Counted from the whole stretch's first letter, positions 2,264 through 63,217 are shown. The stretch is 63,318 bases of DNA, filler included, from Reclinomonas americana ATCC 50394 (GCA_048213135.1; 8 parts of 4 records of this genome joined end to end with filler, not necessarily neighbours in it); one strand, 5' to 3'. The notes: generated by a model from the letters alone, not told the origin. A program made the numbers and translations.

Positions 2264-5223
2264 ATGCCTCCGACGAGCGCTGCGACTTCTTCCACACGGA
2301 AGCCGGCGTCTCCGACGTCGTTCTCCTTCCACCTTGTGTTGCCTGTTGTTGCGGTGATTCTTGTGCTGTTGTATGTGGTGGCGATTCCGTGGTGGGCGTT
2401 GCTGGTGGGCACGTGCGCGGCGCTGTGTGTGGCCTCGTGGGTGTGGTACACGGTGAAGCGCGCGGGAGCGCCGGGGGCGACGTGGGTGGTGCCGTTCTTT
2501 GGATGTTGCGTGCACTGACTGATGCAATGCAATGCATGGCGTGTGCATTGTGGCATGCACGACGATCAGTGGATTGAGAGTGAGGGAGAGGAGGAGGAGT
2601 GGAGTAGGTTGAGCAGGTGCTGTTCCGTGGACGCCAAAGTGGCGTGCATTTCCTTTGTCATGAAGACGTGCATTTCGATTTTTGTTGTCTCGGGTTTCTC
2701 CGGGGCTTGTCTCGTGCACTCGTCCCCATTTTGCTGTCCCTCCCCCTTCTCTCTTTCTCTTTCCGCTTCTCTCCTTGGGTGTGCATTCCTTGGTGATTTG
2801 CATGCACGACGACGATCAGTGGATCACGAGAGAGAGAGAGAGAGAGGGAGAGGAGGAGGAGTGAAGTCGGTTGAGGAGATGTTTTCTTGTGGATGCCATT
2901 GTGGCTTCTGTGGTGCACTTCTGGAAGACGCGCTGTTTGTCTCTAGCTCCTCCGCTACTTCACTCATCTTGTCTGCCCTTCTTTCCTCCTCTCCCTCTCT
3001 CTGTGCTTGCCGTCCCTTCTCTCTCTCCCTCTCTCCCTCTCTCTCTTCTCCACCACCTCTTCTCCTTCTTGGCTCCTTTTCTTCCGCTCGCCTCACTCGC
3101 GCCCCCCACAGGCATTTTCGAGCTGGTGGCACAGCCCGTCAAGTTCTGGGAGAAGCAGCGCGACTACTCGCCCAACGGCTTCTCGTGCAACCTGTTGCTC
3201 GGCCGTCTGATGGTGTACTTGACCAACACACAGTTGGCCAAGCAGGTGTTTGCGCATCCGGATATCTTTGAGGTGTGACGGGGAGTCCCCCTATTCTCAA
3301 ACTCTCACCACCCTGACGCACTTGCACGCACAGATTTTTGTGCACCCGAATGCTCCGTGGCTGCTCGGAAGCGACAACATCATCTAGTTGCGTCGTTGTT
3401 CCCCCCTCTCCCTACCGCGATCTGTCATGGAACTCACGACTGCAACACAGCAAGGACGTCGAGACCCACAAGGTGTGTCTGCTTTGTTTTCTATCCCCTA
3501 TCGTGATTGCCTCCTCATTGATTTGTTGTTTTGCAGACGGTACCTTCTGCCATCGCGAGTGTCTCTATTTTCTTCAATTTGTTCTCATTGCTGTTTTCCA
3601 ACAGTACCGCACGCTGCTGCACCGCGGCATGTTTGACGTTGCGTGGTAGGCCGTCGCATCACCGATGCTGAGTCAGCCGTGCTTACCGATGCATCGTGCA
3701 GGCCACTGCCCTCAGCTCGTACCTGCCGCCCCTGGAGGACAACATTCGCTCCTTTATCCGCGAGCGCATGAACGGCGACGGATTCATTGATGCGCGCCTG
3801 AGTCTGCGCGTGGCGGCAGCCCTCTCGTCGCAAACCACGTTTTGCGGCAACTACTTCCCACCGGTTCATCATTTCTCCGTGTGAGCGACAGGCAAATGTC
3901 CTCCTTGTGACTCACAACACCACCAACACAGGAGGCACGCGAGATGCTGGCCGAAGACATGTTGGCGCTGACGCAGGGTTTCCTGTGCTTGCCGATTCCA
4001 CTGCCTTTCACGCAGTTGGGCAAGGCCATTGCGGCCAGCAAGAGGTGTGGTTCTTCTTGTCTGTGAGTGAGTTTATGTCGCGCACTCTCTGACGCGTCGC
4101 CTGCAGGATGTGCGAGTACATTACCGAGGCTGTGGAGGCCGGGTGCGTTGCATAAACCCACTTGTACTCCCAGATGTCTGCAGCCTTCTCATCTCTTCGC
4201 TGCGCAGCAAGAAGCACGTGTTCTCTGGCGGTGAGCCGACGTGCGTCGTGGATTACTGGTGCCACGAGATCATGGCCCGCGACGATGTGCTGCGCGGAAA
4301 GAAGGACTCTGGCATGGAGACGCCCAACATTACGGCTGCGGTGAGGGTGACACACTCTGCATTGCGCGCTGACTGGCTGTTGCTCATATTAATGGTGCAG
4401 GTGCTCGACTTTTTGTTCGCCAGCCAAGATGCCACTGTCAGCGCTCTGAGTTGCGCCTTCCTGCTATTGACACCGTCTGGTGCATTGTGCTCACCAGCCT
4501 GTGCAGTGTGGATGTTGCACCACTGCTCCAAGGACCCGTCCATCTATGAGCGCGTGCGCGCCGAGATCCAAGAAAAGGTTCGTCGATACTCGCTGCACCT
4601 CTGTTTCTCCACGGCAGCATCTCACTTTCCCCCCAGGTTCCCGCCGGCAGCACCATTGCGAAGCACTTTAGCGACCTGACATACCTGCACTCGGTGACTC
4701 GCGAGCTGCTGCGCTGCTACCCGCCAGTGCCGATGCTGCCGCACGTCACGACGCGCGATTTCAAGCTGACCGACGACTTTACGATTCCGACGGGCGCCGT
4801 TGTTATTCCGTCGGTCATCGATGCGGCTCAGAATGAGCCTCATGCACGCCGCTTCAAGCCCGAAGAGAACCCCGACCCGCAGGTGAGTGTATCTCACGAG
4901 GGAAAAGACAATGAGAATGGCATTGTGGAAGTGACAATGTCTGTGTGCAGTTTTACCGGACGCTAGTGTTTGGCGGCGGGCAGCACATGTGCGCCGGCCG
5001 CTACTACGCCATGAATGTGATTTCGATGGTGCTGGCCATTCTCGCCACCGAGTATCGCGTCACACGCAAGGATATGCCCGGCAACGACACATACATGTTG
5101 CGTCTCGTCCCCCCACTCCGTGCAACTGAAAAAATCGTGCATGCCCTGACCCTTTGATGCACGCCCAGGTACTTGCCGACTCTGTTCCCATCGGAGAACA
5201 CGTACCGCTTCGACGCGCTGTAG
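2264..5223 (+). CDS. CYP710: Cytochrome P450, CYP710/CYP61 (sterol C-22 desaturase-like), copy A, multi-exon
   Basis: Spliced product has an N-terminal TM anchor, PVKFWE, FVHPNA, the I-helix VLDFLFASQDAT (CYP710/ERG5 signature), ELLR (ExxR), heme motif FGGGQHMCAGRYYA and C-terminal YLPTLFP; stop TAG 5221-5223. Confidence 0.85.
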
Positions 5224-5780
5224 AGAGAGTGAACCAAGAGCCTTTGCGAATGAACAACGCAATCGAAGTTCATGCATGTCCCGCGCCCATCTTACAATTC
5301 CGTCCTTCTCCCCTCTATCTCGTCGAGCCATGAACGCGTCATCTCCACTGCACACACGACGCACCTCACAGGACGACAGCGTGCTGCTCTGCGCCACATC
5401 ACCGAAACAGCGCACAGTGCTCACACGGAAGCGATCGCACAGCGCAGTGGACTCTCGCGCGCTCCCTGCAGCGCATGTGCACTCGGAGTCGCACAGCAGT
5501 GACGCACACAACATTCAAGGAGTGGACGACAGGGCGCCTGTGGAGTCACCACCTCCGTCACCGCCGCCTCTGTGCATTGCTGGGGACTTGATTGTGCGGA
5601 GGCGACGGCGACGGAGCATGATGCTCTGTGGGGCCGAGGAAGCAGTGGGCGGGATGTGAGAGCGACTATTGTGTTTTACTTTGGACGACAACAACAACAA
5701 CAACAACATGCTCTCTCATGAGGTGGTGACGGAATCATCGGCCTGGCGCAACAGGCTGCTTGGGAGGGGTATTTGTGTTT

Positions 5781-61381: not shown

Positions 61382-61572
61382 TGCTCTGTCTCTCTTATGT
61401 GGATGACGATGATGCAACGGACAGGGGACAGAATGTGTACAACAAACAAAACACTTCATCGTTTCTTTCTTANNNNNNNNNNNNNNNNNNNNNNNNNNNN
61501 NNNNNNNNNNNNNNNNTTAATTAATTAANNNNNNNNNNNNNNNNNNNNNNNNNNNNNNNNNNNNNNNNNNNN

Positions 61573-63217
61573 GGGGGTGGTGGCTGGAGTGCCGACGAAT
61601 ACTTGTTCTTCGATGCCGCACTCGTCGTAGCCGCGGAGGATGCGGAAGTAGCCGGATTCGCCCCAGTCCGTGCCCCAGCTGTGAGCGCGAAGGTGAGAAG
61701 GCGAGAGAGAGAGGGAGGAGGAGGGGAGGGAGGGAGAGAGGGTGGCAGAGAGAGGGAGGATGGGAGAGCGTGTTACTTGCCTGTTTGCTACGATCCAGTA
61801 GCCCACCGAGTGGCTTGTGCCCCAGCCGACGATCTGGAGGTGGGAAGGTGGTAACGGGTGAGAGGGGGAAGGGTGAGAGGGGGAAGGGGGAAGGGGAAAA
61901 GGGGAAGGAAAAGGGGAAGGACAAGGGGGAAGGAGAAGGGGAAGGAGGGGGAAAGAGGGAGAAAGAGGCAGCAAAGGAGGAAAGGAGGAATGAGAGCGAA
62001 AGAGAGCAGAGAGGGAGAGGGAGGGAGAATGAGGAAGACGGGAAGGGGGAAGGGCAGAGACGAGAGGAAACGACACAACCTGCGGCCAACTCGGCTTGCT
62101 GACGTTGTTAAAACAGGATATAAAAGGATGGATTGTGCGAAGGATGCACAGCAGTGTTCAGCACGTGAGAGAGAAGGCAAACAAGAGAAATGGCAAAGAG
62201 AAGCAAGCCACAAGATCGGGTTTGCTCTCACTGGGCAAATGAAGAGTCCACCGGTTGCACAAGAATGATACAAGGAGACATATTTGCTCTCATGGCCACA
62301 AGAGGTTCGACAGGACGCGATGATCGACATGGCTGAATTCTCAGATCGTCCCTGCCAGCCACCCAACATACCTTCACAGAATGATCACCAGTGTACGATC
62401 CATCGTAGTGGGTGTAGATGCCGGAGGCGTACGAGAAAAAGTCGCCAAACACTGCACAGGGGAAGGAGGTGGGCGAAACAGCAACACGCAGGCGATCCAC
62501 GCGTGCACTGACCCGACATGACCGCCGACAGGGGTCCTTCCGTGAAGAGGTCAGCTGTGGGAGACAAGTAAGCGTGTGCCGCGTAGGCGCAGCGAAGTCA
62601 CCACGTACGCAACTGCGCATGGTGGTCTCGTCGCCCAGGTGCGCAAGGGAGTTCGTGGAGGAGTAGAAGCGCTTTGTCGAGTCCTTGCAATCCTGTGTCA
62701 GGAGAACCGACTGTCAGCTGCCACTCCCCTGGAAGCAGCTCTGCACGCACAAACATGGACACGAACCGAAGGCTCAGAGCTGCAGGTCGGAGCGATGCCG
62801 TTGTGCGACGTGTAGGGGAAGCACTCGGAGGTCGGCACCCCGTGCTTTTCGAGATACTGCGTCACGACAGCCGCACATGAGCCGATGGAATGCAACTGCG
62901 GCACAAGTCGGTGGACGCAACTCTCCAGGCGCGATCCAGGAAACCACCGCTGCAGCCTGTGATGTGAAAGCATGGTGTAAATAGCACGCCAAAATTGAGA
63001 GGAAGAGGGAATTGAGTGCGAACCCATGTCGGCCGTGTCACAGCTGACCATGTCTTGCACGCTCAGTGGCAGCTGCACACATGAGTAAGGCACTTGACCA
63101 CTTGCAGCAAGAACGCGACAGGTTGTCGATACACACCACGGATGAATTGCCGCCATTGGCGATGCAGAGACGCTCGCTGAACGATTGCACGGCAGCGAAT
63201 GCCCAGGAGGAGCCGCA
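61573..63217 (-). CDS. Cathepsin B-like (papain family C1A) protein with catalytic Cys replaced by Ser; 5' end outside the window
   Basis: CGSSWAF..SFSERLCI, LSVQDMVSCD..|GCSGG, ECFPY, GP, DFFSYASGIY, HSVK|IVGWG, YWIVAN|SWGTDWGESGYFRILRG.DECGIE. Confidence 0.9.

Follow-up and report, generated by a model that had tools for sequence, protein, structure and literature searches.

A frequent GTTGCG class of 5' splice sites that avoids exons ending in G in Reclinomonas americana

Introduction

How the spliceosome fixes the exact bond that it cleaves, and what share U1, U5, and U6 each have in that choice, is debated (PMC11732430). In human cells, shifted and bulged pairing registers at 5' splice sites (donors) are experimentally established (PMC4856993; its ref. 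10, Roca & Krainer 2009), but they are rare, with all validated noncanonical registers together accounting for 1.5% of 5' splice sites (PMC4856993), and they have to be studied minigene by minigene. In the current work, we describe a donor class beginning with GTTGCG in a window of 63,318 bases from Reclinomonas americana ATCC 50394, the window being the whole stretch of DNA that was analysed (G+C content approximately 58%, with 27 runs of N). The window is eukaryotic, dense in genes, and rich in introns (approximately 100 in 63 kb), and its GTTGCG donors never follow an exon that ends in G.

These donors resemble the mammalian +1 shifted sites in layout, with a GU followed by a consensus block displaced by one base and with cleavage at the normal GU; in an exon end other than G (the test oligonucleotide in PMC4856993 reads ACA/GUCAAGUAUA, the slash here and below marking the exon-intron boundary); and in predicted pairing, for which the shifted frame outscores the canonical one when calculated here with the textbook U1 5' end. 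They differ from the human noncanonical sites (1.5% for all validated registers together; PMC4856993) in their frequency, since a single heptamer starts 18-23% of predicted introns and supplies approximately half of the donors where the exon does not end in G, and from plain shifted sites in that G is fully excluded at -1 and C is invariant at +5, neither of which a shift alone predicts. The layout of GUU plus a consensus block is also that of the bulge +2/+3 sites (Roca et al. 2012, summarised in PMC4856993), but those keep the pairing of an exon-end G, and no such G is found here (0/30). A further likeness is to the split between AG//GUNNN and NN//GURAG sites (PMC11732430), where two anti-correlated classes, one with an exon-side and one with an intron-side consensus, are served by the same spliceosome; the corresponding contrast here is a -1 G in 27/37 donors of one class against 0/30 of the other. 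Unlike the NN//GURAG class, which has G at +5, the block in our window lies at +6/+7, with C at +5 in 30/30 and G at +6, and unlike the two-class split, the window has an additional, less numerous group of donors that follow a base other than G and carry the block in its normal place (10/37 of class I, defined below).

From sequence statistics alone, the class looks like a high-frequency and unusually strict variant of known splice-site recognition that fully matches neither the shifted register nor the two-class split. A full-text literature search, its hits judged by titles and abstract openings, turned up no description of a GTTGCG/GUUGCG splice-site class. If true, a single stereotyped shifted donor, used by approximately one intron in four under an all-or-none rule on the last exon base, would amount to a natural large-scale experiment; it would allow tests of what sets the cut site and of whether an extra nucleotide is tolerated by U6, and it would help to explain the exclusion of -1 G and of +5 bases other than C and to trace the interconversion of donor types at fixed positions. 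A practical consequence is that annotation with gene finders trained on +5 G would be wrong for a large proportion of the introns in this genome.

Gene Prediction and Boundary Checks

Introns were predicted with our own gene finder, a dynamic programming procedure that combines codon log-odds (first trained on Pfam-matched stretches), open frames, the branch motif CTNAY, acceptor context, and intron length. In its flat, donor-blind mode every GT receives an equal score; in its trained mode a first-order donor model is applied to intron positions +3 to +8 only, and the exclusion of exon positions leaves the -1 base unbiased. Introns were limited to 400 nucleotides (nt), longer ones being missed, and the procedure also merged or skipped exons of the citrate synthase gene and missed a papain-family gene. 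Throughout, class I denotes the GTG[ACT]G donors (n = 37, from trained predictions) and class II the GTTGCG donors, for which 30 sites were obtained by pooling claimed and predicted ones, 23 by trained predictions, and 18 by flat predictions. Pfam scans covered stop-to-stop open reading frames first and predicted exons later; for the boundary checks, predicted exons were scanned singly against Pfam, and profile coordinates were compared across introns. Duplexes with U1 were predicted with the textbook U1 5' end, an assumed end that may not be that of this organism.

Frequency of GTTGCG Donors

An initial interpretation of the window, made without database searches (hereafter the sequence-only reading), had claimed donors beginning with GTTGCG at 22 coordinates and one GTTAAG donor at 7666 (-), and all of these motifs are present. 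As a plain hexamer, GTTGCG is not over-represented: the two strands of the window together carry 75 copies, where shuffled sequence gives 66.7 +/- 8.4, and a count of 75 or more arises in 17 of 100 shuffles. Its copies are strongly clustered at the starts of introns. These copies occupy 75 of the 7933 GT sites on both strands (0.95%), and it is against this background that the donor counts are to be read. With the flat, donor-blind predictor, GTTGCG starts 18 of 103 introns, and 18 of 117 after two retraining rounds, making it the commonest donor hexamer both times, with GTGCGT second at 9; the 18 comprise 13 of the 22 claimed sites plus five unclaimed ones. In trained mode, 100 introns are predicted, with GTTGCG (23), GTGCGT (11), GTGAGT (8), and GTGTGT (5) as leading donors, and the 23 consist of 15 of the 22 claimed sites and eight new ones.

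Chance, or position-wise base composition, which had been named beforehand as a possible refutation, is ruled out as the source of these counts: were the donor positions independent, approximately one GTTGCG donor would be expected (1.0 in flat and 1.4 in trained mode), where 18 and 23 are observed. Since the sites are spread over at least 12 predicted genes, the class is pervasive across the window. The observation is thus confirmed as real, and it is stronger than first reported.

Boundaries Fixed by Homology

Twelve GTTGCG introns are fixed by homology, eight through the tiling of Pfam profiles and four through the alignment of two P450 paralogues. Profile coordinates abut to the residue across seven donors (19366, 33794, 34462, 34665, 47510, 38966, and 39589); at an eighth, 38825, they agree to within one residue. 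In the citrate synthase gene, the intron at 19366-19427 (+; CTA/GTTGCGTG, 62 nt) separates profile positions 206-260 from 262-303, with one split codon between them, and tblastn with six homologues agrees; the joined frame reads YKNY/DPRA, a conserved motif of citrate synthases. The closest database protein to this enzyme is 68% identical, and named matches include Amoebozoa and Plasmodiophora. A 72-nt exon of the same gene (19069-19140, +; region 19007-19199), which sits between introns of 62 and 59 nt, was skipped by the gene finder and recovered from tblastn alone, indicating that ab initio models miss short exons here.

The AFG1-like ATPase gene contributes three class II introns on the + strand, at 33794-33849 (AGT/GTTGCGTG, 56 nt), 34462-34527 (GCA/GTTGCGTC, 66 nt), and 34665-34731 (ATT/GTTGCGTC, 67 nt). 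Profile positions 83-97 are filled by 1 + 14 residues across the introns at 33794 and 33892, nine residues stand for nine profile positions across 34462, and position 279 is contiguous with 280-281 across 34665. In the HpcH/HpaI aldolase gene, profile position 153 is followed by two residues and then by position 156 across the intron at 47510-47574 (+; ATT/GTTGCGCA, 65 nt). The gene for F-actin capping protein beta (CapZ-beta), on the - strand, holds three more: 39491-39589 (CCC/GTTGCGTC, 99 nt), where profile and exon lengths give 20 residues for positions 48-67 across the donors at 39589 and 39433; 38906-38966 (GCA/GTTGCGCT, 61 nt), where position 104, a split codon, and position 106 succeed one another; and 38767-38825 (AGA/GTTGCGCG, 59 nt), where the profile agrees to within one residue. 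A CapZ-beta homologue search returned no match.

The remaining four introns lie in the first of two convergent cytochrome P450 genes (2264-5223, +, and approximately 5874-7844, -), which are 37-53% identical over their main aligned stretches and have some intron positions in common while others differ. The - strand paralogue is contiguous at the positions of two introns that were predicted in both modes, 3387-3450 (CTA/GTTGCGTC, 64 nt; NIIYKD vs. NLIFKD) and 3638-3701 (GAC/GTTGCGTG, 64 nt; GMFD-ATALSSYL vs. GMFGEESLHSYL). At the other two positions it has an intron of its own. The first intron of the + strand gene, 2505-3111 (GAT/GTTGCGTG, approximately 607 nt, and hence beyond the 400-nt limit and not predicted), interrupts the same codon (PFFG/C/IFELV vs. 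PWIG/C/IIDLV) as the first intron of its paralogue at 7599-7666 (-; GAT/GTTAAGCG, 68 nt), the sole GTTAAG donor, which was placed by frame reading and paralogue alignment and was not predicted. Likewise, the intron at 5097-5168 (CAT/GTTGCGTC, 72 nt; predicted in both modes) has a counterpart at the same position with the donor CAT/GTATGT (5996, -). The comparison shows that donor types turn over in place, GTTGCG corresponding to GTTAAG in one pair of paralogous introns and to GTATGT in the other, at identical positions. As a separate observation, the intron at 2505-3111 is ten times the usual length and contains an apparent partial repeat of its own 5' part, with similar translated strings occurring twice.

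It could be argued that hand-built gene models laid over a common hexamer would generate such a class by artefact or chance, and both the ordinary frequency of GTTGCG window-wide and the fact that GTT GCG also occurs ordinarily as a pair of Val and Ala codons lend themselves to that view. The class is nevertheless found by a predictor blind to donors, has twelve members fixed by homology, and exceeds the approximately one site that independence predicts; artefact or chance, together with the introner copies and U12-type introns considered next, is in our judgement extremely improbable as an explanation.

Nature of the Introns

Both donor classes are joined to the same 3' signals. The acceptor is CAG in 22/23 class II introns and 36/37 class I introns, the branch motifs CTCAC, CTGAC, and CTCAT are common to class II and ordinary introns, and the median intron length is 66 nt in class II, against 71 nt for the introns with which it was compared. 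The matching branch motifs, acceptors, and lengths indicate that one spliceosome serves both donor classes.

Several special origins for class II were considered and rejected. Copies of a mobile intron (introners) are ruled out, as none of 231 class II pairs reaches 24 bits when intron interiors are compared (blastn-short), while 0.2-0.8% of other class pairs do. An effect of phase is ruled out because predicted class II introns occupy all three phases. U12-type introns, which are removed by the minor spliceosome, have the donor /RTATCCTT and a TCCTTAAC-like branch site near the 3' end; the donor GTTGCGY and the branch CTNAY, as in ordinary introns, rule them out here.

The Last Exon Base and the Displaced Block

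Across the 30 GTTGCG donors, the -1 base is A in 14, T in 10, C in 6, and G in none. The sequence-only reading had stated that A, C, or T precedes each of its donors and that ordinary donors mostly follow G; the first statement holds and now extends to 30 sites, and the second is borne out by a -1 G in 27/37 GTG[ACT]G donors. GTTGCG donors are far from equally frequent after G (0/30) and after other bases, equal frequency having been named beforehand as a possible refutation. The contrast appears in every set compared. In the trained set, -1 G is found in 0/23 GTTGCG donors (A12, T8, C3) vs. 27/37 GTG[ACT]G donors (Fisher p=4e-9), with 23/40 in the remaining donors, a class that holds some false calls; in the flat set the figures are 0/18 vs. 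23/34 (Fisher p=9e-7); and among homology-checked introns only, they are 0/12 vs. 12/13 for other donors (Fisher p=2.7e-6). In addition, A is enriched at -1 (14/30, against 21% A window-wide, p=0.003).

Within the intron, the 30 donors have T (25) or C (5) directly after GTTGCG, mirroring position +6 of class I, whereas in non-donor copies of the hexamer this base is C in 16, G in 14, A in 8, and T in 7; as a result, an intron starts at 25 of the 32 GTTGCGT heptamers in the window. The class I consensus is (G/C)AG/GTG(C/A)GTG, with A in 15/37 and G in 8/37 at -2, and with C in 17, A in 13, and T in 7 of 37 at +4. This agrees with the earlier view of N/GTTGCGT as the local G/GTGCGT motif displaced by one base.

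It is the displaced block, rather than the T at +3, that goes with a non-G exon end. Donors with +3 T in which +5 G/+6 T are normally placed (GTTCGT, GTTCAT, GTTTGC, etc.) have a -1 G in 7/9 cases, while six other donors of GTTG type all follow a base other than G. These include the profile-exact GTTGTG donor at 43744 (-) of the UDP-glucose dehydrogenase gene (intron 43463-43744, CAA/GTTGTGTT, with two residues for two profile positions), which is the shifted analogue of GTGTGT. Viewed from the exon side, GTTGCG makes up 23/50 of the predicted donors at non-G exon ends, or 30/57 when claimed-only sites are included; such a share of approximately one half fits the earlier suggestion that GTTGCG compensates for a missing -1 G. 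Class I supplies another 10 donors at non-G exon ends, all of which have T at +6 (10/10), against 14/27 class I donors with a -1 G.

Two published donor classes are characterised by just such an anti-correlation between an exon-end G and a strong motif in the intron (PMC11732430; PMC9803359, PMC11842720), and this raises the alternative that recognition takes place mainly after U1. Class II would then correspond, in this lineage, to the NN//GURAG class, recognised through U6 or LUC7-type contacts with an offset in the pairing of the U6 ACAGA box, and class I to the AG//GU class, recognised through exon-side U5. The uniform +6 T of class I donors that lack a -1 G is in keeping with this idea, as is the noncanonical U6 register proposed for one human site (PMC11162779). 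However, in the intron-side class described in the literature +5 G is in its normal place, whereas the block is displaced here, and the terms "shifted" and "bulge" each occur 0 times in PMC11732430; on this evidence we consider recognition after U1 distinctly unlikely.

Register of Recognition

The best-supported reading, which we regard as an even call, is that class II consists of ordinary GT-AG introns removed by the major spliceosome, with a 5' splice site, H/GUUGCGY (H = A, C, U), that is read in a +1 shifted register. Under this proposal, which we infer from the patterns above in all that concerns U1, U6, and selection, H/GUUGCGY would be the lineage's normal donor G/GUGCGU placed one base deeper in the intron, and the first intron G would take the usual place of the last exon G in the helix with the U1 5' end. 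C9 of U1 would pair with the +1 G, C8 would face U+2 as a single mismatch, and from A7 onwards the UGCGU block would be paired as usual. Cleavage would stay 5' of the sole GU, and U6 and the catalytic core would therefore have to make room for an additional U that separates the cut from the UGCGU block. Such sites may be used, and kept by selection, where the exon cannot end in G, being the commonest donor there, while the ordinary register would serve exons ending in G, for which it would be much the stronger of the two. A -1 G might hold U1 in a frame that does not match the U6 pairing that follows, and sites of this kind could have been purged, or converted to G/GTGCGT by the loss of one T.

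Duplex predictions are partly consistent with the shifted register. For CA/GUUGCGU, the predicted value is -1.6 in the shifted frame, vs. +2.2 with a bulge and +2.6 in the canonical frame, and when G is substituted at -1, the best predicted duplex switches to the canonical or bulged frame. The enrichment of A at -1 is likewise expected if this base pairs with U1 position 10. In a bulged register, by contrast, U1 would remain in its normal frame from -1 to +2, one U of +2/+3 would be bulged, and UGCGU would then pair normally. A +2/+3 bulge is among the human registers, with 68 predicted sites and 54 after curation (PMC4856993), and its pair count equals that of the shifted register. A bulge gains most when a -1 G pairs with C9, however, and so predicts the very base that is observed in 0/30 donors; the best duplex with a -1 G does switch to the bulged frame, yet sites of this form are absent, and we therefore hold a bulged U to be very unlikely.

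Several observations weigh against the shifted register. First, the deficit of -1 G is only modest against the hexamer's own background (0/30 donors vs. 6/45 non-donor GTTGCG copies, one-sided Fisher p=0.04); the deficit is partly common to the background, and the strong signal comes from the comparison with ordinary donors. Second, the resemblance of the exon -1 position to the equivalent -2 position of class I extends to A (14/30 vs. 15/37) but not to G (0/30 vs. 8/37, p=0.007), though a G-U10 wobble would be allowed. Third, the predicted pairing of class II with U1 is very weak, at -0.6 to -3.1 kcal/mol, and is -0.6 kcal/mol for sites with C or U at -1, yet 16/30 sites carry one of these bases. 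Fourth, C occupies +5 in 30/30 GTTGCG donors; even with the single GTTGTG site counted, C stands to other bases at 30:1, against C in 17/37 at +4 of class I (p=3e-6). Under a pure shift, GTTGAGT and GTTGTGT should occur in the same proportions as GTGAGT and GTGTGT, and the invariant +5 C is unexplained by it. The earlier suggestion that shifted-register recognition is a major route in this organism thus stands in part: motif geometry, the -1 A, and the best predicted duplex favour it, while the exclusion of -1 G, the invariance of +5 C, and the weak pairing do not.

The same observations bear on the possibility of a variant snRNA (small nuclear RNA), in which an additional U1 gene, or a U1 with an altered 5' end (e.g., with G and C replacing the two pseudouridines), would pair with GUUGCGU directly or far more strongly than textbook U1, the donor classes reflecting either two snRNA species or one retuned species. 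A partner with G opposite +4/+5 may account for the +5 C found in 30/30 donors, and ordinary donors strongly prefer +3 G and +4 C, neither of which pairs well with textbook U1; the weak duplexes predicted with that U1 and the near-invariance of the heptamer point the same way. On the other side, the 3' signals are identical in both donor classes. A variant is also made less likely by the near-universal conservation of the U1 5' end, which to our knowledge extends to GC-rich lineages whose donors resemble GTGCGT, and we judge this explanation unlikely on balance.

A bolder proposal, which is possible although we lean somewhat against it, would make two pairing registers co-equal genome-wide, or invoke a U1 variant evolved for the purpose. 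The base at the exon end would act as the switch, G leading to G/GUGNGU and A, C, or U mostly to H/GUUGCGY, with the scissile bond one base further from the snRNA helix; -1 G would be actively excluded, since it would lock U1 into the wrong frame; and R. americana would be the first organism with shifted-register splicing as a major pathway.

Further GTTGCG Sites

The eight new class II introns all lie on the - strand. Five were predicted in both modes, namely 15648-15705 (AGA/GTTGCGTG, 58 nt), 31116-31179 (GCA/GTTGCGCT, 64 nt), 57135-57200 (CTT/GTTGCGTC, 66 nt), 58062-58132 (AAC/GTTGCGTT, 71 nt), and 60091-60164 in the LRR gene (GGT/GTTGCGTC, 74 nt), and three in trained mode, namely 16846-16915 (CAT/GTTGCGTG, 70 nt), 31288-31355 (CCA/GTTGCGTG, 68 nt), and 57603-57673 (AAT/GTTGCGTC, 71 nt).

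Four claimed donors are supported by the predictor, in both modes: 4450-4506 (+; TGA/GTTGCGCC, 57 nt), 14064-14340 (+; GCA/GTTGCGTG, a predicted 277-nt intron with an uncertain acceptor), 20835-20898 (+; CGA/GTTGCGTC, 64 nt), and 28056-28131 in the E2F/DP-like gene (-; AAA/GTTGCGTG, 76 nt). The donor at 14669-14748 (+; TCC/GTTGCGTC) was called in the first flat run only, the trained run preferring a GTGAGT donor at 14563 to the same acceptor, and the intron that begins at the donor 40742-40747 (+; AGC/GTTGCGTT) enters an N gap at 40807. Three others are plausible by frame reading alone: the first donor of the Kelch gene, at 20160-20165 (+; TCT/GTTGCGTG; not predicted), and two in the papain-family gene on the - strand, at 62555-62613 (GCA/GTTGCGTA, 59 nt to the first CAG; not predicted) and 62857-62921 (AGA/GTTGCGTC, 65 nt). 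Searches of the PDB with papain-family exons gave nothing usable for the last two. The donor at 52909-52914 (+; GGC/GTTGCGTC) is supported neither by a gene model nor by homology among the predictions and frames examined. Several introns start within GTGTGTGT runs, where the exact donor is ambiguous.

Gene Content and Other Features of the Window

Pfam matches on open frames comprise two cytochrome P450 genes, a PHD-like zinc finger, citrate synthase, a Kelch protein, an AFG1-like ATPase, F-actin capping protein beta, PTH2, UDP-glucose dehydrogenase, a protein kinase, an HpcH/HpaI aldolase, a TTC4/Cns1-like protein, an LRR protein, an E2F/DP-like protein, SUEL-lectin repeats, and a papain-family protease. 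An Rfam scan of the window at gathering thresholds found no family, and hence no U1, U5, or U6 gene within it.

The papain-family (Peptidase_C1) gene at 63041-63316 (-), the one missed by the gene finder, reads QCGSSWAF at approximately 63130-63200, where the family has CGSCWAF, including the catalytic cysteine. The gene may encode a Cys-to-Ser pseudo-protease, or the difference may be a sequencing error.

A 12-mer, TTAATTAATTAA, lies between paired 44-N runs at 21828-21927 and at eight like places and is an artificial linker for joining contigs, with a stop codon in each of the six frames. These linkers mark the window as a stitched scaffold, in which adjacent pieces are possibly not true neighbours. 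One entire piece between two gaps is occupied by an intronless open frame with seven WD40 repeats (21930-22850, -), whose closest matches are generic WD40 proteins of 29-55% identity, including some from bacterial metagenome bins; this piece is either foreign to the scaffold or a WD40 array of NACHT/TIR type. Microsatellites of the types (GT)n, (CA)n, (GA)n, and (CTC)n are numerous window-wide, for example at 9106, 56507, and 60861.

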